NCBI RefSeq assembly: GCF_055900595.2
Contig: NZ_CM148325.1
Strand: one strand, 5' to 3'
DNA: 64,000 bases
Positions within the stretch are counted from its first letter, which is position 1, and every line of letters starts with the position of its first letter. A model generated the notes under the pieces. It did not search any database and was not told the origin of the DNA. It saw only the letters and a list, made by a program, of their open reading frames with translations. Shown here in pieces: positions 11,659-54,780 of this stretch. Both the position numbers and the translations under genes were made by a program.

Positions 11659-11675
11659 TTTGAGGGAAAACATGT

Positions 11676-11858
11676 CGGATGCGGCGTAAACGCCTTATCC
11701 GACCTACGGTTTGCATCGTTGTAGGCCTGATAAGACGCGGCAAGCGTCGCATCAGGCAACGGCAGTCGGATGCGGCGCAGGCGCCTTATCCGACCTACGG
11801 TTTGCATCGTTGCAGGCCTGATAAGACGCGGCAAGCGTCGCATCAGGCATTACAAGGC
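11676..11858. repeat. Tandem pair of about 91-bp REP/BIME units
   Basis: gatgcggcg…cttatccgacctacggtttgcatcgttg[t/c]aggcctgataagacgcggcaagcgtcgcatcaggca occurs twice head-to-tail; ORF-track artefacts on both strands repeat the same peptides (MRRKRLIRPTVCIV…, MRRLPRLIRP…). Confidence 0.8.
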
Positions 11859-15511: not shown

Positions 15512-16375
15512 ATGAAACAACACCAATCGGCGGATAATTCTCAGGGCCAGCTTTACATTGTACCGACGCCAATCGGCAATCTGGCAGATATCACCCAGCG
15601 TGCGTTGGAGGTTTTACAGGCCGTTGATCTGATTGCCGCCGAGGATACGCGTCATACCGGTTTACTGCTGCAACATTTTGGAATTAACGCCAGGTTGTTC
15701 GCCTTGCACGACCATAACGAACAACAGAAAGCCGAAACGTTACTGGCGAAGCTGCAGGAAGGGCAAAACATTGCGCTGGTGTCCGATGCCGGAACGCCAC
15801 TGATTAACGATCCCGGCTATCATCTGGTGCGTACCTGCCGAGAAGCGGGGATTCGCGTGGTGCCACTACCGGGGCCGTGTGCTGCTATCACTGCATTAAG
15901 TGCTGCGGGTTTACCATCCGATCGTTTTTGTTATGAAGGTTTCCTGCCTGCCAAATCAAAAGGCCGTCGTGATGCGCTAAAAGCCATTGAAGCGGAGCCG
16001 CGTACGCTGATTTTTTATGAATCCACCCACCGTCTGTTAGATAGCCTGGAAGATATCGTTGCTGTGCTGGGTGAGTCCCGTTACGTGGTGCTGGCGCGTG
16101 AGCTCACCAAAACCTGGGAAACCATTCACGGCGCGCCCGTTGGCGAGCTGCTGGCGTGGGTCAAAGAAGATGAAAACCGTCGCAAAGGTGAAATGGTGCT
16201 GATTGTTGAAGGCCATAAAGCACAGGAAGAAGACTTACCTGCCGATGCCCTGCGCACGCTGGCGTTGTTACAGGCTGAGCTTCCGCTGAAGAAAGCGGCG
16301 GCGCTGGCAGCAGAGATTCACGGCGTGAAAAAAAACGCGCTGTATAAGTATGCGCTGGAACAGCAGGGGGAGTGA
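15512..16375 (+). CDS. rsmI: 16S rRNA (cytidine1402-2'-O)-methyltransferase RsmI
   Basis: Translation recognised as YraL/RsmI; divergent from lpoA. Confidence 0.9.
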
Positions 16376-16380
16376 TTACA

Positions 16381-16411
16381 GGCGTCGCAGCAAGAATAGA
16401 GCTGCAACGCC
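16381..16411. other. Imperfect hairpin between convergent rsmI and agaI
   Basis: ggcgtcgcagc (16381-16391) / gctgcaacgcc (16401-16411), one mismatch; no flanking U-run, so not a canonical intrinsic terminator. Confidence 0.4.
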
Positions 16412-16424
16412 TACACCGGGCGAT

Positions 16425-17192
16425 TTAACGACGACACATCTCATCAATCATGCATGTGAAATAGTTATGCAGCCATAAAAACGAAGCCGGGATAGCGGTA
16501 GAGACTTTAGCCGTGAGAAAACGTTCTGTCGCATCCTGCTTTCCTTCGCCAGTTATCAGTAACAAAACTTCGCGGGCATTGAGAATATCCTTCAGGCCTA
16601 AAGTGATCCCACGAGTCACGGGGCGACCCGCGGTTTTTAACATCTCATGTTGTTGCGTTCTGGTATCAAGCTGGCTGATATGGCTTGCTGGTTGCAGACT
16701 TTCTCCCGGTTCGTTCAGCCCAAGATGGCCGTTTTTTCCCAATCCGAGAACGCATAAATCCAGACCGCCTTTGCGCGCAATCAGGTTCGTTACCCGTTCG
16801 CACTCTGTCTCATTTATCTCTTCAGAGCGAAAGCTGATGAGCTGGTCTTCACGTAGCCCCAGCGGCTGCACGATATGCTGTTGAAGGAAAGTTTCGCAGG
16901 TGCCAGGCATCGTTAATGGCAGATCCACCCATTCGTCGAGCTTCACGAAGGTCAGTTGGCTGACATCAACCTGCTGCTGGTGGATTTTTTCTACCAGATA
17001 ATGATACGTCAGTAATGGCGTGGCTCCGGTCGCCAGGCAAATCACGGCATCCGGTTTGCTACGGATCACGGCCAATAAATATTCGCTGGCACGTTCACTT
17101 AACGCCGTATAGTTTTCAACTTGTTGAAGGGTTTGCACAGGATGAAATTCCTTTAGTAAAGAGGCACCACCAGACGCAGTGCCTCGTTCCAT
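16425..17192 (-). CDS. agaI: Putative galactosamine-6-phosphate deaminase/isomerase AgaI (NagB family)
   Basis: Translation recognised as AgaI; start codon uncertain (ORF-track start used). Confidence 0.85.
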   Translation of the reverse strand: MERGTASGGASLLKEFHPVQTLQQVENYTALSERASEYLLAVIRSKPDAVICLATGATPLLTYHYLVEKIHQQQVDVSQLTFVKLDEWVDLPLTMPGTCETFLQQHIVQPLGLREDQLISFRSEEINETECERVTNLIARKGGLDLCVLGLGKNGHLGLNEPGESLQPASHISQLDTRTQQHEMLKTAGRPVTRGITLGLKDILNAREVLLLITGEGKQDATERFLTAKVSTAIPASFLWLHNYFTCMIDEMCRR

Positions 17193-21837: not shown

Positions 21838-22971
21838 TCAAAACGAAGCTAATTGACCCTGAATCCAGATTTGTTGCACATACAGTCCGCTATTCAGCGC
21901 AACGACGCTGGCGCGTTTGCCCGGTTTAAGTGATCCCAGAACACCATCAACACCCAGCATTCGCGCCGGATGCAGCGATGCCATATGGATGGCTTCCGCA
22001 GGCGTTACGCCCGTCAACTCGACCATGTTGCGCACTGCCGCATCGACAGACAGCGTACTGCCCGCCAGCCCACCGGACGCGGTACGGACAACGCCACCGC
22101 GCATCTGCACTTCTTCACCACATAACGTATATTGACCATCCGGCATCCCGGCTGCCTGCATCGCATCAGTTATCAGCACTATTCTCTCTTTCGCACAGCA
22201 ACAACACAGCGACATCGCCGCCGGATGTACATGATGCCCATCGGCTATCAATTCCAGCCAGGCGCGCTTGTCCGTTAAACCCGCGCCAACCATTCCCGGT
22301 TCGCGGTGATGTAATCCTGTCATCCCGTTATAGCAATGCACCAGGCCGTCTGCGCCAGCATCAAATACGGCGCGGGTTTGTTGCCAGGTTGCTGCGCTAT
22401 GTCCCAGCATTACCCGCACGTTCTGCTGTTTAAGATGACGAATGGCTTGTAACGCGCCCGTTTTTTCCGGTGCCAGCGCCACCACGCGCAAGGTATGCCG
22501 TGAAACAGCAATCAATTGATCCAGCTCGGCAATTTCCAGCTCGCGAAACAGCTCCGGCGGATGTGCGCCTTTATTCTGCGGCGTGAAGTACGGTCCTTCG
22601 AGATAACTCCCCAGCACTTGCGCACCAGGTCCACCGCGCTGGCAGCGTAGAGCAATACGTTCCAGCGCCGCATGAATGGTATTAAGCGGCGCGGTTACGG
22701 TAGTCGGCAACCAACTGCCGACACCTTCCCGTGCCTTGTGCATTGCCAGCTTGTCGAGCACATCCGGCGCGTCATCCATAACATCAACGCCCGCACCACC
22801 GTGTACATGGGTATCGATATAAGCGGGGCAGAGCAGTTCCGCATCGCGTTCAGTCACGCCCACTGGAATCGGTTCGATTGCTGCAATTACACCGTCAGCA
22901 ATATGCAACTGATGATCATCAAGCCAGCCCTCCTCAGTCAGCAGTCTTCTGGCGCGCAGAACGTGTGTCAT
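21838..22971 (-). CDS. agaA: N-acetylgalactosamine-6-phosphate deacetylase AgaA, full length (377 aa)
   Basis: NagA-family metal-binding motif (YIDTHVHGGAG) in translation; start at MTHVLRARR (22971). Confidence 0.85.
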   Translation of the reverse strand: MTHVLRARRLLTEEGWLDDHQLHIADGVIAAIEPIPVGVTERDAELLCPAYIDTHVHGGAGVDVMDDAPDVLDKLAMHKAREGVGSWLPTTVTAPLNTIHAALERIALRCQRGGPGAQVLGSYLEGPYFTPQNKGAHPPELFRELEIAELDQLIAVSRHTLRVVALAPEKTGALQAIRHLKQQNVRVMLGHSAATWQQTRAVFDAGADGLVHCYNGMTGLHHREPGMVGAGLTDKRAWLELIADGHHVHPAAMSLCCCCAKERIVLITDAMQAAGMPDGQYTLCGEEVQMRGGVVRTASGGLAGSTLSVDAAVRNMVELTGVTPAEAIHMASLHPARMLGVDGVLGSLKPGKRASVVALNSGLYVQQIWIQGQLASF

Positions 22972-23402
22972 ATTCCTTCCTCGACCGGACATTCTTCATG
23001 GCAGCGGCCTAACTCGTCTACCAGACTGGTCAGCCCACGGTGTCCACACTCCAGCGCCTGCACACGGAATTCTTCACCGCTTAACCCTTCGCGCTCCAGC
23101 ACCATTTCCAGTAACAGTTGCAAATTGGTGCCGGTGATCACTTCATAGCCCGGTTTTTGCATCGCCAGCGTTGAAGCCACGCGAAACGGTGTGCCGCCCA
23201 GCAAATCTGTCAGAAAAACAATGCCGTCTTCACAATCCAGTTGGGCGATGGCTTCTTCAAGCTGCGATGTAAGCAGCGCAGTGCTTGAGGTTTCCGGAAA
23301 ATCAATGGCGATAAACTGCGACTGCTCGCCGAGGATTTGCTTCATTGCTTTTTCCATGCCGCTGGCAAATCCGCCATGCCCTGTCAAAATAATACTTAAC
23401 AT
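22968..23402 (-). CDS. agaF: PTS mannose-family EIIA component (144 aa)
   Basis: Translation recognised as AgaF; overlaps agaA start. Confidence 0.85.
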   Translation of the reverse strand: MLSIILTGHGGFASGMEKAMKQILGEQSQFIAIDFPETSSTALLTSQLEEAIAQLDCEDGIVFLTDLLGGTPFRVASTLAMQKPGYEVITGTNLQLLLEMVLEREGLSGEEFRVQALECGHRGLTSLVDELGRCHEECPVEEGI

Positions 23403-23419
23403 CTAATACCTCATTGTAT

Positions 23420-24304
23420 TTAAAGGAAATGACAGAATTTACCGACGATGCCAAGAACCACGGTAACCGCAATCAGGCGCAGCGGACTCCAGCCGCGGCG
23501 TACCAGCCAGAACATGGTCAGGGTGTAGACCAGCGGTAAGAAGGCAGGCATCAGTTTGTCGATAACGTCAGCCTGCAGCTTAACCACTGCGTCGCCCGCC
23601 GTGATTTCCAGCGTGGTGCTTAAACGAACATAGGTTGCCACCAGCGCGCCGATTACCGTCATCCCAACGATTGACGCAGCATGGCCGACTTTTTTGGTAT
23701 TCGCTTTAATGAGTGGAATCGCCGCCACGCCCATGCGGTAAGCATAATGCGCCAGACCAAAACGCAGCCCCAGGTGTACCACGTTGAACAGCACAATAAA
23801 GACGACTGCGCCAAGAATAGAGCCTTGCAATGCCAGACTGGCTCCAATCCCGCCACAAATCGGCAGTAACGTTAGCCAGAACATGGCATCGCCAATCCCG
23901 CCGAGCGGCGCACCGACGGCAATTTTGGTGCTCTGAATACTGTTAACGTCCTGCTTAGAACGCTCCATCGCAAGGATAATGCCGATAACAAACGTCACCA
24001 GAAACGGATGGGTATTGAAGAAACCCATATGTCCCTTCATGGCGCGCGCCAGGTCGCGTTTATTAGTGTGGATCTTTTTCAGAGCAGGCAGCAGACCGTA
24101 CAACCAGCCGGAAGCCTGCATACGTTCGTAGTTAAAAGACGCTTGTAACAGCATGGAACGCCAGGCGACGCGGTTGATATCTTTTTTCGTCAGCTCTGCG
24201 CCAATGCTCTGATCTTCATACACGTTTTCATTGACGCCTGTCAGCAGTGTCTCTTCATTTTCGCTGACGTTCGGCAGGGTGGTTTGATTAGATGCCATCT
24301 TCAA
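23420..24304 (-). CDS. agaE: PTS mannose-family EIID component (galactosamine)
   Basis: Paralog of AgaD in translation. Confidence 0.85.
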   Translation of the reverse strand: MKMASNQTTLPNVSENEETLLTGVNENVYEDQSIGAELTKKDINRVAWRSMLLQASFNYERMQASGWLYGLLPALKKIHTNKRDLARAMKGHMGFFNTHPFLVTFVIGIILAMERSKQDVNSIQSTKIAVGAPLGGIGDAMFWLTLLPICGGIGASLALQGSILGAVVFIVLFNVVHLGLRFGLAHYAYRMGVAAIPLIKANTKKVGHAASIVGMTVIGALVATYVRLSTTLEITAGDAVVKLQADVIDKLMPAFLPLVYTLTMFWLVRRGWSPLRLIAVTVVLGIVGKFCHFL

Positions 24305-25067
24305 ATTCCTCTTTCTGTGCCGCAGGTTGAGTCGGTTCAGGAGATTTACGCAGCAAGTCGATCAGCGCCATCGCCAGCGCGGCGGCAGCAATAGCCAGCA
24401 CCGGTAACTTGAGCCAGGCTGCGGCAACAAAGCCCAGGATGAAGTAGGGGATGTAGACGTTTTTCATCATGATTTTCAGCAGCACGGCAAAACCGATTGC
24501 TGGCATGATGCCACCCGCGACGCCGAGGCCGTCGATTAATCGTTGCGGCAGGACATCAATGATGGTTTTGGCATGTTCTGCGCCGAAGTAGATAGGCAGG
24601 AAAGCGCAGAGAAAATAGAACGTGCCGAGTGCCAACAGTGCCAGATAGTTCACGCGTTCAATGCCGCGTGTATCGGCGTTCTCCGCCATCCGGTCGCAGC
24701 GGGACATTACGCCAGACATCACCGAGAACAGGAAGGTAATCCCCATCTGTACTGCGACAGCGAAAGGTACGGCGACACCGACCGCGACATCCGGTTTCAC
24801 GCCAGTAGTAATGGCAAACGCCGTGCCGACGATAGTTCCGATAATCACGTTAGGCGGCTGTGCGCCCGCCAGTGGTGCCAGCCCCATCCACACCAGTTCC
24901 AGCGTACCGCCGGTTAAAATACCGGTATGCAGATCGCCAAGCACCAACCCAACTAACGGGCCGAGGACCACCGGGCGGTGCATATGGGTCAAGCCGTTAA
25001 ACATATCCAGGCCAGCGATAAAGGCGATAATGCCCAACGCAAATGCCTGCAACAGACTGATTTCCAT
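24288..25067 (-). CDS. agaW: PTS mannose-family EIIC component, full length (259 aa)
   Basis: Paralog of AgaC in translation; overlaps agaE start by 17 nt. Confidence 0.85.
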   Translation of the reverse strand: MEISLLQAFALGIIAFIAGLDMFNGLTHMHRPVVLGPLVGLVLGDLHTGILTGGTLELVWMGLAPLAGAQPPNVIIGTIVGTAFAITTGVKPDVAVGVAVPFAVAVQMGITFLFSVMSGVMSRCDRMAENADTRGIERVNYLALLALGTFYFLCAFLPIYFGAEHAKTIIDVLPQRLIDGLGVAGGIMPAIGFAVLLKIMMKNVYIPYFILGFVAAAWLKLPVLAIAAAALAMALIDLLRKSPEPTQPAAQKEEFEDGI

Positions 25068-28431: not shown

Positions 28432-28766
28432 TATTCGTCGTCGCCAATCTCATCGTCAATGTTGACGTCCATGCCAGCGACAAGTTTCTTTCCTTGTTGA
28501 ATGTCGAATGGACGAGTTTTTTGCGGGTTGTTCTGGATATCTGCATCCAGAAAACGCAAAAATGCATTCATAGTATGATCCTCCTGTTCATCTCCCAGTC
28601 GGCACATAAATACTTGCCCACCAGGCAGAATTTCGTAATGAATGCTGTCCAGGCCTGGCTTCAGTTTTAAGGCCTCACGCACTGGCGCGGGGATAGTTGT
28701 TTGTCCGCGTATCGTGACCTTTGATTCAGTGGTCAGTACAGCGTTAGAGCGAGCATTAGCGGGCAT
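28431..28766 (-). CDS. prlF: Antitoxin PrlF/SohA (AbrB-fold; 111 aa)
   Basis: Translation recognised as PrlF; acidic C-terminus (DDEIGDDE). Confidence 0.9.
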   Translation of the reverse strand: MPANARSNAVLTTESKVTIRGQTTIPAPVREALKLKPGLDSIHYEILPGGQVFMCRLGDEQEDHTMNAFLRFLDADIQNNPQKTRPFDIQQGKKLVAGMDVNIDDEIGDDE

Positions 28767-33998: not shown

Positions 33999-35144
33999 AT
34001 GAAAATCGTAATCGCCCCAGACTCTTATAAAGAAAGTTTATCTGCCAGCGAGGTTGCGCAGGCGATAGAAAAAGGATTTCGGGAAATTTTTCCTGATGCA
34101 CAGTATGTTTCCGTTCCGGTTGCCGACGGTGGTGAAGGAACGGTGGAAGCCATGATTGCAGCCACCCAGGGGGCTGAACGTCACGCCTGGGTTACAGGGC
34201 CGCTGGGCGAGAAAGTGAATGCCAGTTGGGGGATCTCCGGCGATGGCAAAACCGCGTTTATCGAAATGGCGGCGGCCAGTGGGCTGGAACTGGTACCTGC
34301 GGAAAAACGCGATCCACTTGTGACCACTTCACGCGGTACTGGCGAGTTAATCCTGCAGGCGCTGGAGAGCGGCGCGACAAACATTATTATCGGCATTGGC
34401 GGCAGCGCCACCAACGACGGCGGCGCAGGCATGGTGCAGGCGCTGGGGGCGAAATTATGCGATGCCAACGGCAATGAAATTGGTTTTGGCGGCGGTAGCC
34501 TTAATACTCTGAATGATATTGATATTTCCGGCCTCGATCCGCGCTTAAAAGATTGTGCTATTCGCGTCGCTTGTGATGTCACCAATCCGCTGGTGGGCGA
34601 TAACGGCGCATCGCGCATCTTTGGCCCACAAAAGGGAGCCAGTGAAGCGATGATTGTCGAGCTGGACAATAACCTCTCTCACTATGCCGATGTCATTAAA
34701 AAAGCGCTGCATGTTGATGTGAAAGATGTCCCCGGCGCAGGAGCTGCGGGCGGTATGGGCGCGGCGCTGATGGCGTTTCTTGGTGCGGAACTGAAAAGTG
34801 GTATTGAAATCGTCACGACGGCGCTGAATCTGGAGGAACATATTCACGATTGTACGCTGGTGATCACCGGTGAAGGGCGTATTGACAGCCAGAGTATACA
34901 CGGCAAGGTTCCGATTGGCGTCGCAAACGTGGCGAAAAAGTACCATAAACCGGTGATTGGCATTGCGGGTAGCCTGACCAATGATGTTGGCGTTGTACAT
35001 CAGCATGGCATTGATGCGGTCTTCAGCGTATTGACCAGTATTGGTACGTTGGACGAAGCATTCCGCGGGGCTTATGACAATATTTACCGTGCTTCACGTA
35101 ATATCGCCGCGACACTGGCGATTGGAATGCGCAACGCGGGGTGA
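33999..35144 (+). CDS. garK: Glycerate 2-kinase GarK (381 aa)
   Basis: Translation recognised as GarK; start at MKIVIAPDSYK (33999) rather than the ORF-track ATG at 33918. Confidence 0.9.
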   Translation: MKIVIAPDSYKESLSASEVAQAIEKGFREIFPDAQYVSVPVADGGEGTVEAMIAATQGAERHAWVTGPLGEKVNASWGISGDGKTAFIEMAAASGLELVPAEKRDPLVTTSRGTGELILQALESGATNIIIGIGGSATNDGGAGMVQALGAKLCDANGNEIGFGGGSLNTLNDIDISGLDPRLKDCAIRVACDVTNPLVGDNGASRIFGPQKGASEAMIVELDNNLSHYADVIKKALHVDVKDVPGAGAAGGMGAALMAFLGAELKSGIEIVTTALNLEEHIHDCTLVITGEGRIDSQSIHGKVPIGVANVAKKYHKPVIGIAGSLTNDVGVVHQHGIDAVFSVLTSIGTLDEAFRGAYDNIYRASRNIAATLAIGMRNAG

Positions 35145-35176
35145 CAAGGGCGCGCAAACCCTCTATACTGCGCGCC
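35145..35176 (+). promoter_or_regulatory. rnpB promoter (-10 TATACT with GC-rich discriminator)
   Basis: ggtgacaagggcgcgcaaaccctctatactgcgcgcc immediately 5' of the mature M1 RNA; the -35 region overlaps the garK stop codon. Confidence 0.5.
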
Positions 35177-35553
<377 letters not shown>

Positions 35554-35564
35554 ATTTTAACGAA

Positions 35565-35596
35565 AACCCGCCAGCGTAAACTGGCGGGTTTTTGCT
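35565..35596 (+). terminator. Rho-independent terminator of rnpB
   Basis: cccgccag-cgtaaa-ctggcggg hairpin followed by TTTTT. Confidence 0.7.
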
Positions 35597-35825
35597 TTTG
35601 AGGAGGGTGGTCGGAAAGATGAACGTCTTATCTGGCCTACAAAACAACGAAAATTCAATATATTGCACAGAGGCAATGTAGGCCTGATAAGCGTAGCGCC
35701 TCAGGCAATTTTGTGTTTATCATCAGTCTCGAATCTGCTTCGGCAAGCTTTTACTTTTGGTGCAGACGGAAAGATGAACGAATATCTAAGCTATTAATAA
35801 TAGACTTTGCAAGAAATCATTACAT

Positions 35826-36995
35826 TTATATTTCATTTAAAAGATCGTAATCATACGTATATTCTTTGCTAATAAAACGACACTCGTTGAAGCTAAATTC
35901 ATCGTCTGAAAAGGAATTGTCAACAGAATCTCTTTCTTCCTCCAGGCTATTATCTGAAAGCAAGTCGTTTGAGTTAGTATAATCTAGGTTGTAATCGACA
36001 GTATAATTAATTTCTGGATTGGTTTGGTAATCATTTTTTTTGACGCAATCATATTCCTCAATAATTTTGTCGATATAATCATATGCTTTTTCTAATGAGA
36101 AGTTTTTCATCTCTGGTAATTTAACTTTGCTCAAATAATTATTAATTTTTGAGGAGTTTTTATATATGCTTTTTGTTAATTCTTTTTCTAATTTGTCTGT
36201 TATATTTGCTGTTGGTATGGATTTTATAATCGCATATCTCATGATTTTTAATTGATCTTCGGTTAAATCTCCAAGCTCATTTAAACAACTTTCGACAAAG
36301 TTGATTTTTTCTCTGGAATAATCATCGCTGATACTTGTTAACGCTGGGGTGATTTTTAATAAAGAATTCCATGAGATAGTACCATTGTGTGTCGAACGCA
36401 TAAAATTTATATTGTACATATTGGTTTTAGTAAACTTTGTTGCAAACAATGTAAAGGGATCTAAAGTCGCGTAAGCCATATGTTTATTTGAAAAATCATA
36501 ACCAGTTAAATCGACGTTATGCAAGTCCAGATAGGATAAATCTATTACGTCGCCTGCTCCAGAGCTAAAGATTACATTTAATCTTCTGATTTCATTGTAA
36601 ATTCCCTCTAATGAACAATTTGTGTTCATGATGTCTGCTGAAATTTTTATGTTATTTAACGGTTCACAAATTATAAGCTTGCAGGTATTGTCTGATCGTT
36701 GCGTTATTTGGGCATTATAACCTAAAAAGTCTATGCGAAGAGACGAGTTATTATAAAGTATTACATTTTTTAAGTATGCTAATTCTTGTTGAAAATCACC
36801 ATCGATAATACATGTTCCACCAGGTTGCAACGCGCAGATTAACGTGAGCATTTGATTAGAAGTCTGTTTTAGTTTTACTACACCTGGTGCTAGTGCTTTG
36901 AGGTCATTTATTATGGGGGTTTCAGGAATGTCATTCATTTTTATACGTACTAAATCATTACCTAAGTCATTACCTATTGATGAAACCGGGAACAT
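35826..36995 (-). CDS. yhaC: Uncharacterised protein YhaC, AT-rich gene (389 aa here)
   Basis: Long ORF with Asn/Ile/Tyr/Lys/Asp-rich composition and low GC; pentapeptide-repeat-like stretch (DLSYLDLHNVDLTGYDFS); acidic Ser/Asp/Glu-rich C-terminus. Confidence 0.8.
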   Translation of the reverse strand: MFPVSSIGNDLGNDLVRIKMNDIPETPIINDLKALAPGVVKLKQTSNQMLTLICALQPGGTCIIDGDFQQELAYLKNVILYNNSSLRIDFLGYNAQITQRSDNTCKLIICEPLNNIKISADIMNTNCSLEGIYNEIRRLNVIFSSGAGDVIDLSYLDLHNVDLTGYDFSNKHMAYATLDPFTLFATKFTKTNMYNINFMRSTHNGTISWNSLLKITPALTSISDDYSREKINFVESCLNELGDLTEDQLKIMRYAIIKSIPTANITDKLEKELTKSIYKNSSKINNYLSKVKLPEMKNFSLEKAYDYIDKIIEEYDCVKKNDYQTNPEINYTVDYNLDYTNSNDLLSDNSLEEERDSVDNSFSDDEFSFNECRFISKEYTYDYDLLNEI

Positions 36996-37016
36996 TATTT
37001 TATCCTTTTTAAATAA

Positions 37017-37556
37017 TCAATGAGAATCATGATTAAAATGATCTGGTGAAAAAAAGAGAATTTGCCAACAATCTGAAACATTGTCAGTTTTATTAAAATG
37101 ATTAAATTCCGTTAAGATAACTTCTTTTTGCGTGAACTTTGCGCAAAACTTAAAAATTGTCTCCTTGATACACTCCAGATCTTTTCTATTGATGGCTGAA
37201 CAAGTACATTTTTCGCCAAAAGGTGAAAATGTGCCTACATCTAAAGTTTGTATTATATAATCATCATTTACTCCTGTAGAAATATCTATGATGAATGGAC
37301 TTCTATTTTCCGGTTGGATTCGGATCATTACAGAAGAAACATCACCTTTATAGACATTCAATGCAGTAATCGCAGATAATATTCTCCGCAATTCATTGCT
37401 TATGCTGTAAATTTCATTAACGTCATTTGTCGATATAATCTCGGCAAATTTTATTTTTACCTTCCAATAATCAATGTTTCTATTATAAGTGTTAACAGTT
37501 TCGTACATTGGTGGTATCGAAGGGGGTAAAAAATGTGAAACCGAATAACCTTTCAT
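37017..37556 (-). CDS. yhaB: Uncharacterised protein YhaB (179 aa)
   Basis: AT-rich ORF 21 bp downstream of yhaC on the same strand; start placed at MKGYSVSHF (37556); ORF track extends to 37586. Confidence 0.75.
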   Translation of the reverse strand: MKGYSVSHFLPPSIPPMYETVNTYNRNIDYWKVKIKFAEIISTNDVNEIYSISNELRRILSAITALNVYKGDVSSVMIRIQPENRSPFIIDISTGVNDDYIIQTLDVGTFSPFGEKCTCSAINRKDLECIKETIFKFCAKFTQKEVILTEFNHFNKTDNVSDCWQILFFSPDHFNHDSH

Positions 37557-37794
37557 TGATGCCTGCCTTGTCATCATGACAAACAATAATCAATGCTTAT
37601 TTTCCTTGCACGGTTCGCTCACAACTATCAAAAAACGCTCAATTACCTGGCATTACAGTCAACGAAGCAAAATTCTGTGGTCTACAACGATGTAAAGCAC
37701 AACGAAAATCCTCCTTGTTCTCTTATTCTGATCGTATAGCGATGAACATCAATTATTCGTTTTGTGATCATCAACACAAAATGCTATTTAGTAA

Positions 37795-38169
37795 CTATGG
37801 TGACAGTAGAAACGAGGGGAAACGATTGCATTCACAAAATGACGTCCTGTAAGAAGGGTGAAAGTTGATGTTAATCAATTGTTCGAGATGATCAATATCT
37901 GTATTCGAAATTTTAAAACATTGATAAAATAAATGTTTGCCCTCCAACAAATAGCGAGAAAAAATGTGACGTGCCGCATTATTTATCGCTGAAAATGATT
38001 TATTTATAATAAAATTTGATAACTTGCTCATAAAATTTAACTCAAAATTTGCCTGGTAATTATCCGCTAATTGCTTGAAATATGGTCGCAGCTGCTTTTT
38101 TTTATTAACCACATAACGAATGATGTTATCGCCATAAAATATGGTTATCCCTGTCATTTTTTTTGACAA
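37795..38169 (-). CDS. tdcR: Putative threonine dehydratase operon activator TdcR; start codon uncertain
   Basis: AT-rich ORF divergent from tdcA at the position where tdcR lies; in-frame alternative starts at MTGITIFYG and MSKLSNF; the annotated protein may be shorter than the 124-aa ORF. Confidence 0.55.
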   Translation of the reverse strand: MSKKMTGITIFYGDNIIRYVVNKKKQLRPYFKQLADNYQANFELNFMSKLSNFIINKSFSAINNAARHIFSRYLLEGKHLFYQCFKISNTDIDHLEQLININFHPSYRTSFCECNRFPSFLLSP

Positions 38170-54396: not shown

Positions 54397-54780
54397 AAAC
54401 GAGGAGCGTTTCTCCTCGTTTGAGACTGATGGCAAACGCAAAACTGCCTGATGCGCTATGCTTATCAGGCCTACGAGGTTTCTGCAATGTATTGAATTTG
54501 CATGTTTTTGTAGGCCGGATAAGGCGTTCACGCCGCATCCGGCATGAACAACGTGCACTTTGTCAACAATCTGAAACGAGGAGCGTTTCTCCTCGTTTGA
54601 GACTGATGGCAAACGCAAAACTGCCTGATGCGCTATGCTTATCAGGCCTACGAGGTTTCTGCAACGTATTGAATTTGCATGTTTTTGTAGGCCGGACAAG
54701 GCGTTCACGCCGCATCCGGCATGAACAACGCGCACTTTGTCAACAATCTGAAACGAGGAGTGTTCCCCCTCGTTTTTTAT
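54397..54780. repeat. Tandem array (about 2.2 copies) of a 177-bp composite unit: perfect hairpin plus REP pair
   Basis: Units begin at 54397, 54574 and 54751 (partial); each carries aaacgaggagcgtttctcctcgttt followed by REP units (gcctgatgcgctatgcttatcaggcctac…gtaggccggataaggcgttcacgccgcatccggca); the two full copies differ at 3 positions. Confidence 0.8.

Follow-up and report, generated by a model that had tools for sequence, protein, structure and literature searches.

The junction between rsmI and agaI in the window (the whole stretch of 64,000 nucleotides analysed here, from contig NZ_CM148325.1 of assembly GCF_055900595.2) belongs to a variant of this locus that is old, frequent and known from earlier work. 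We consider it very probable that the junction represents an old unoccupied haplotype of the known yra presence/absence polymorphism, with rsmI and the aga/gam operon running towards each other across a 49-bp gap; the hairpin lying in this gap would most likely serve as a transcript-end structure. The empty state is old and probably ancestral, a polarity that rests on parsimony.

Anatomy of the junction

As the preliminary description had reported, rsmI and agaI are convergent and exactly 49 bp apart, at the coordinates given in Table 1, with no fimbrial operon between them. The spacer reads TTAC-AGGCGTCGCAGC-AAGAATAGA-GCTGCAACGCCT-ACACCGGGCGAT and holds no ORF, the two genes being directly adjacent as in the empty haplotype, and tblastn found no homologue of YraH, YraI, YraJ or YraK within the 64-kb window. 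The AgaI C-terminus encoded within 16413-16445 reads ...D-E-M-C-R-R before the stop. The neighbours are lpoA, yraN and diaA on the rsmI side and agaD, agaC, agaB and kbaY on the agaI side; agaI is the final gene of an agaS-kbaY-agaBCDI unit, according to the RefSeq annotation of E. coli Z0117EC0005 (NZ_CP098223.1). This complete chromosome is 99.97% identical to the window and collinear with it over all 64 kb, and 1,835 complete genomes have the same junction. That the operon was dropped in assembly, through collapse or mis-joining of the contig, is for these reasons scarcely conceivable.

Table 1. Features of the rsmI-agaI junction, with positions counted in the window.
Feature	Position	Strand	Description
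rsmI	15512-16375	+	287 aa, ending ...EQQGE before the stop; 16S rRNA C1402 2'-O-methyltransferase; ORF list, NCBIfam PRK14994 (629 bits)
agaI	16425-17192	-	255 aa; galactosamine-6-phosphate isomerase family; NCBIfam PRK09762 (468 bits)
Convergent intergenic spacer, 49 bp	16376-16424		Unoccupied form of the K-12 yraHIJK site
Conserved hairpin	16380-16412		Arms 16380-16391 and 16401-16412, loop 16392-16400
Segment specific to the empty haplotype, about 30 bp	16413-16445		12-nt spacer tail, agaI stop and last six codons; from blastn breakpoints and AgaI C-termini

Comparison with K-12 and marks of the yra haplotype

The MG1655 annotation gives the order agaI-yraH-yraI-yraJ-yraK-rsmI, as the preliminary description had stated, and the junction was rightly called non-K-12-like there, since yraHIJK is present here in K-12 and absent from the window. 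When the window was compared with K-12 by blastn, the alignment was lost between window positions 16370 and 16467, opposite 5,483 bp of K-12. There, about 5.4 kb (yraKJIH plus a 400-bp leader of 27% GC) replaces about 30 bp of the window (16413-16445), and the yra-haplotype block spans from the hairpin to about codon 249 of agaI. An allele of this kind, made up of yraKJIH and the AT-rich leader, is the alternative to the empty one in K-12, in the E/B1/A lineage and in E. whittamii.

Each border carries its own marks. The rsmI gene ends GGG-GAG-TGA in the window (...QQGE, then stop) and GGG-TAA in K-12 (...QQG, then stop), the yra-type allele being one codon shorter. A related hairpin follows the rsmI stop in both; the yra-type version, GCGTTGCGTT/AACGCAACG, has the pattern GCGTTGCG(T/C)T...(A/G)(A/C)CGCAACG and is followed by a T-run and then at once by the yraK stop codon. 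With this T-run on its 3' side, the yra-type hairpin looks like a canonical terminator for rsmI. The suggestion that the hairpin sequence be sought at the borders of yraHIJK was thus borne out at the rsmI-proximal border only, the other border having none. On the agaI side, homology between the two AgaI proteins runs through FLWLH..F.C.I, after which the tails diverge, to ...MIDEMCRR in the window and to ...LINT (CLINT, then stop) in K-12. These junction marks are common to K-12, A28, 2015C-3121 and E. whittamii.

Two possible clues at these borders were considered and set aside. The likeness of the window tail ACCGGGCGAT to the K-12 sequence ACCGCACGAT after the hairpin is a chance one: the bases of the latter encode the conserved YraK C-terminus ...TITVIVR, followed by the stop, and the motif is missing from other empty genomes. 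The C-terminal tail of AgaI is uninformative as a marker of polarity, because what follows the conserved CxID motif differs from genus to genus.

The yra genes have a GC content of 44-48% and their leader of 27%, against 50-55% for the flanks. No direct or inverted (terminal) repeats bracketing yraHIJK were found at its borders in K-12, and the K-12 block contains no integrase or transposase, its annotation consisting of the four fimbrial genes only, which is not the make-up of a mobile island. Given this lack of mobile-element marks, the yra block probably moves between lineages through homologous recombination in the flanking core genes.

Over the whole 64 kb, the window is about 96% identical to K-12. 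This uniformity led us to reject the idea of an imported segment, in which the roughly 5% divergence of the window from other E. coli would have been confined to the junction; it indicates instead a deep-branching lineage whose divergence is not special to this site.

Several other differences from K-12 were seen along the window. At 22397-24691, agaW-agaE-agaF-agaA (the last nagA-like) is intact, so the window has a complete 13-gene aga/gam cluster, whereas K-12 has a 2.3-kb deletion there that makes pseudogenes of agaW and agaA. The yhaB/yhaC region (35001-38000) is a hyperdivergent allele, with 78-89% identity to K-12 against about 96% elsewhere in the window; the RefSeq genome that matches the window has two hypothetical proteins annotated there. 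Two REP-containing units are repeated in tandem: one of 91 bp in the dolP-yraQ spacer (11674-11849; 1.9 copies, 95% match), where K-12 aligns as though it were single-copy, and one of 177 bp between yqjF and yqjG (54397-54775; 2.1 copies, 97% match), where most of the insert is missing in K-12. Weaker copies of the 177-bp unit lie at about 35620, 50114, 52404, 53011 and 53223.

Distribution and age of the two haplotypes

Among 5,426 complete E. coli genomes, rsmI and agaI are contiguous in 1,835 (34%), and yraHIJK DNA is present in 3,523 (65%), always on the chromosome and covering at least 80% of the operon in 3,264; none of the 5,426 has a yra match below 95% identity. The annotated gap is 49 bp, exactly as in the window, in Ec-U18, ST131 2017_APHA, ES11 and ECAMP047. 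The spacer of the window aligns without gaps to those of these four E. coli, of the divergent 'E. coli' E69 and of the type strain of E. albertii, with a mean column identity of 95%. The empty allele is old, being shared base for base in register by about one third of E. coli, a divergent 'E. coli' lineage and E. albertii. Beyond Escherichia, rsmI is directly followed by agaI in Citrobacter youngae, C. werkmanii, Citrobacter FP75 and Phytobacter, and Citrobacter species show the order rsmI, homologous hairpin, agaI, with no fimbrial operon.

The preliminary description had left the choice between an ancestral empty site and a clean deletion scar. The first is favoured by the spacer common to E. 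coli, E69 and E. albertii, and the second, taken as the scar of a recent deletion of the K-12 type, failed because the marks of the yra haplotype are absent. A recent, lineage-specific and clean loss of yraHIJK from a K-12-like ancestor might seem attractive, since K-12 and 65% of E. coli have the operon at exactly this place and since rearrangements do occur here, as in strain EC25, in which 136 bp separate the end of agaI from an IS1 element that abuts an mtr fragment. Such a loss is nonetheless very improbable. The window retains neither the rsmI end ...QQG nor the hairpin with its T-run, the AgaI end ...CLINT or any remnant of the AT-rich leader, and its 49-bp spacer, in register with those of B2 E. 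coli, E69 and E. albertii, has kept pace with the flanks in its divergence. Even the rearrangement in EC25 keeps the K-12-type end of AgaI, 136 bp of AT-rich leader and the IS1, none of which is found in the window.

As for EC25 itself (NZ_CP035123.1; locus L093, 6001-7100), the IS1 and the mtr fragment are followed by deaD, and an IS1-bounded rearrangement (deletion or inversion) has removed yraHIJK-rsmI-lpoA...yhbW from its position.

The occupied state has its own history. An orthologous yra operon stands at this site in E. whittamii, with 80-85% nucleotide identity against 89-95% for the flanks, within an Escherichia sampling for empty and yra states that left out E. fergusonii, E. marmotae and E. 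ruysiae. Operons resembling yra are also found next to rsmI in the Klebsiella oxytoca group, Citrobacter sp. MGH106, Superficieibacter and Escherichia sp. MOD1-EC7003. The occupied state is thus old too, and polarity has to be argued by parsimony. These same observations would suit a single ancient deletion, in which a yra or yra-like operon stood beside rsmI in the Escherichia ancestor and the empty haplotype arose once, before or around the split of E. albertii and E. coli, then persisted or was spread by recombination: the yra operon of E. whittamii is at least as diverged as its flanks, and related operons sit beside rsmI in the other taxa just named. We nevertheless consider this history unlikely. 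In the Citrobacter that have the homologous hairpin, agaI adjoins it and no fimbrial genes are present; identity to YraJ is only 58% for the usher of MOD1-EC7003 and 64-69% for those of Klebsiella and Citrobacter, so that these operons are not simple vertical orthologues; the lower GC content of yra and its 27%-GC leader suggest a foreign origin; and a published reconstruction infers a gain of yra, acquired by the E/B1/A lineage (PMC6896753). An old, probably ancestral empty site therefore remains our preferred reading. The yra-negative state has been reported outside the E/B1/A lineage (PMC6896753; PMC4128348), and yra transcripts were seen solely in A/B1 isolates (PMC4128348).

The flanking genes group by lineage and not by haplotype, with a slight excess of similarity between K-12 and E. 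whittamii only in the last 300 nt of agaI. A trans-species balanced polymorphism, in which the flanks would cluster by haplotype, was rejected on this ground. Flanks that follow lineage, together with two alleles that are both old, would fit repeated exchange of the whole segment by homologous recombination.

The same slot is differently filled in two further genomes. In MOD1-EC7003 (locus L018, 1680-7100), it holds a distinct yra-like chaperone-usher operon whose products are 53-65% identical in amino acids to YraH, YraI, YraJ and YraK, with about 19 nt between the stops of rsmI and of the yraK-like gene. In E. coli SCPM-O-B-8794, a separate GTDB species representative (locus L007, 10864-11320), homology to the window ends exactly at the rsmI stop and resumes at about window position 28531, on the prlF/garD side; the 12-kb aga/gam cluster and the hairpin are missing, and a different hairpin, GTGGCCCC...GGGGCCAC, follows rsmI.

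Regarding rsmI itself, the protein is 100% identical in the window, the E. albertii type strain and E69, and in nucleotide sequence the window gene shares only about 92-93% identity with that of every other Escherichia sampled, other E. coli included. This combination points to near-saturated synonymous divergence under strong purifying selection. A 259-bp fragment that is 86% identical to the 3' part of rsmI, annotated as '16S rRNA methyltransferase', was also seen on a 37.8-kb E. coli plasmid (NZ_CP148478.1, 37542-37799).

The hairpin between the convergent genes

The hairpin consists of the 5' arm AGGCGTCGCAGC, a 9-nt loop and the 3' arm GCTGCAACGCCT. Its 12-position stem has 11 Watson-Crick pairs and one further position that is a C·A mismatch on the + strand and pairs as G·U on the - strand. 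The hairpin that had been noticed from the letters, imperfect and lacking a U-run, is therefore real, and a consensus terminator scan found no site in the 49-bp spacer. The predicted fold has -19.5 kcal/mol on the + strand (z -1.9, 11 of 200 shuffles being as good) and -26.2 kcal/mol on the - strand (z -5.5, none of 200). Downstream of the stem come ACACCGGG on the + strand and GUAAUCAC on the - strand, with no U-run on either side. The window hairpin has the GC-rich stem-loop of a Rho-independent terminator and lacks its U-tract, so it is not a canonical intrinsic terminator. The Rfam covariance models gave no match to the spacer, the sole match being a chance-level isrK inside rsmI (E 9.3).

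Across 13 distinct versions of the hairpin from Escherichia and Citrobacter, 81% of the cells are paired and both partners have changed in 6 of the 14 pairs. Thus the empty type has GCAGC/GCTGC where the yra type has GCGTT/AACGC, and E69 shows G-C to A-T. The covariation score was reached by none of 500 shuffles, and register-shifted controls fall to 17-46% paired. Such covariation indicates structural selection on the hairpin in a supportive rather than conclusive manner, because few versions were compared and the structure was itself derived from these 13 sequences. Since the strand that carries the mismatch varies among genomes, the hairpin cannot be assigned to one strand in preference to the other.

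Judged from these sequences, the most likely role of the hairpin would be that of a shared 3'-end structure for both convergent transcripts. Under structural selection, it might stabilise the 3' ends of the rsmI and agaI mRNAs or terminate these transcripts weakly, without the help of a U-tract.

A Fic-wHTH gene downstream of rsmI

The position directly 3' of rsmI that the hairpin occupies is, in other Enterobacteriaceae, that of a gene. In Citrobacter sp. Res13, a 333-aa gene (locus L021, 9701-10702) begins on the rsmI side and fills the interval between the rsmI and agaI stops but for 3 nt at each end; its product has a Fic/DOC domain (Pfam, 3.9e-21) and a C-terminal winged HTH. A full-length Fic+wHTH gene lies directly 3' of rsmI in 11 genera or species, starting 3-8 nt past the rsmI stop (loci L021 plus L013, L017, L026, L029, L030, L048, L054, L056, L058, L063 and L032). 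The homologues in this position, 66-81% identical in amino acids, come from Citrobacter R56, Kluyvera, Lelliottia, Atlantibacter, Klebsiella grimontii, Leclercia, Pseudescherichia and others. In C. youngae, C. werkmanii and other Citrobacter, only a relic is left, in which a SEEMSEEM repeat is joined to the last 24 codons (...KALQLKGKLQRVGAIKRRMWRLL, then stop). In the tail of this relic (...KALQLKGKLQRVG..., then stop), the codons for ALQ and LQR form a hairpin. Indeed, the inverted repeat GCGTTGCAG...CTGCAACGC corresponds to the wHTH codons ALQ...LQR, and its predicted fold has -16 to -19 kcal/mol in the Citrobacter genes and -6 to -9 kcal/mol in those of Kluyvera, K. grimontii and Leclercia.

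The presence of the Fic+wHTH gene 3' of rsmI in many genera of Enterobacteriaceae points to an early linkage of rsmI with fic, later subject to decay in Citrobacter and Escherichia. Aligned with Citrobacter R56 by means of one 1-nt gap, the window hairpin agrees in 24 of 30 positions; judged by composition-matched random hairpins, a match of this kind has p of about 0.001-0.008. When the whole window was searched without restriction by nhmmer, using a profile of the Citrobacter fic 3' end, the site had E = 15 and better chance matches lay elsewhere, and blastn found no fic-like DNA in the 5,426 complete E. coli genomes. As the hairpin covaries between Escherichia and Citrobacter and lies within the last codons of the Citrobacter Fic-wHTH gene, the Escherichia hairpin may be a fossil of the last codons of this rsmI-linked gene, which we regard as plausible, at roughly even odds. 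A wider proposal, falling somewhat short of an even chance, is that the region 3' of rsmI has been a variable slot in Enterobacteriaceae since ancient times, filled in different lineages by Fic-wHTH, by several unrelated yra-type alleles, or by aga/gam or nothing, and that the hairpin would be an exapted fossil of the ALQ...LQR codons, kept for tens of millions of years to end or stabilise the convergent rsmI and agaI transcripts.

Significance of the junction

The junction may be used as a lineage marker, for a yra-negative, deep-branching E. coli lineage with an intact aga/gam cluster, and it provides an example of an indel polymorphism in which each allele bears its own junction signature. 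It would be mildly new that the remains of a coding sequence may persist between convergent genes as an element with a structural role in RNA or DNA; an exapted Fic fossil would, if true, be a modest curiosity. The yra operon has reportedly been described as cryptic and variably present by Korea et al. in 2010 and by Wurpel et al. in 2013. The main text of the latter (PMC3559732) does not mention Yra by name, and we found no description of the junction anatomy (the 49-bp spacer, the breakpoints in the last codons of agaI and rsmI, and the haplotype-specific hairpins) in the yra literature examined.

Relation to known systems

Three known systems resemble what is seen at this locus. With the hairpins of convergent genes, namely bidirectional intrinsic terminators and 3'-end stabilising stem-loops, the junction shares a GC-rich stem of 12-14 bp between convergent stops and compensatory changes, and the K-12 version is then followed by TCTTCTTTT, like a canonical rsmI terminator. 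The window differs in having no U-tract on either strand.

The Fic-wHTH gene 3' of rsmI in Citrobacter, Kluyvera, Lelliottia, Leclercia, Atlantibacter, Klebsiella grimontii and Pseudescherichia occupies the same position as the Escherichia hairpin, and the Citrobacter genes and relics hold the same inverted repeat, GCGTTGCAGC...CTGCAACGC, in their wHTH codons. Escherichia differs in that it would retain at most about 30 nt of the gene, out of frame and with a stop codon.

The closest counterpart is the cryptic chaperone-usher fimbrial polymorphism of E. coli, yraHIJK (Yra). The window shows the same locus, between the same two flanking genes, in its yra-negative state, and it differs from this polymorphism in nothing essential.
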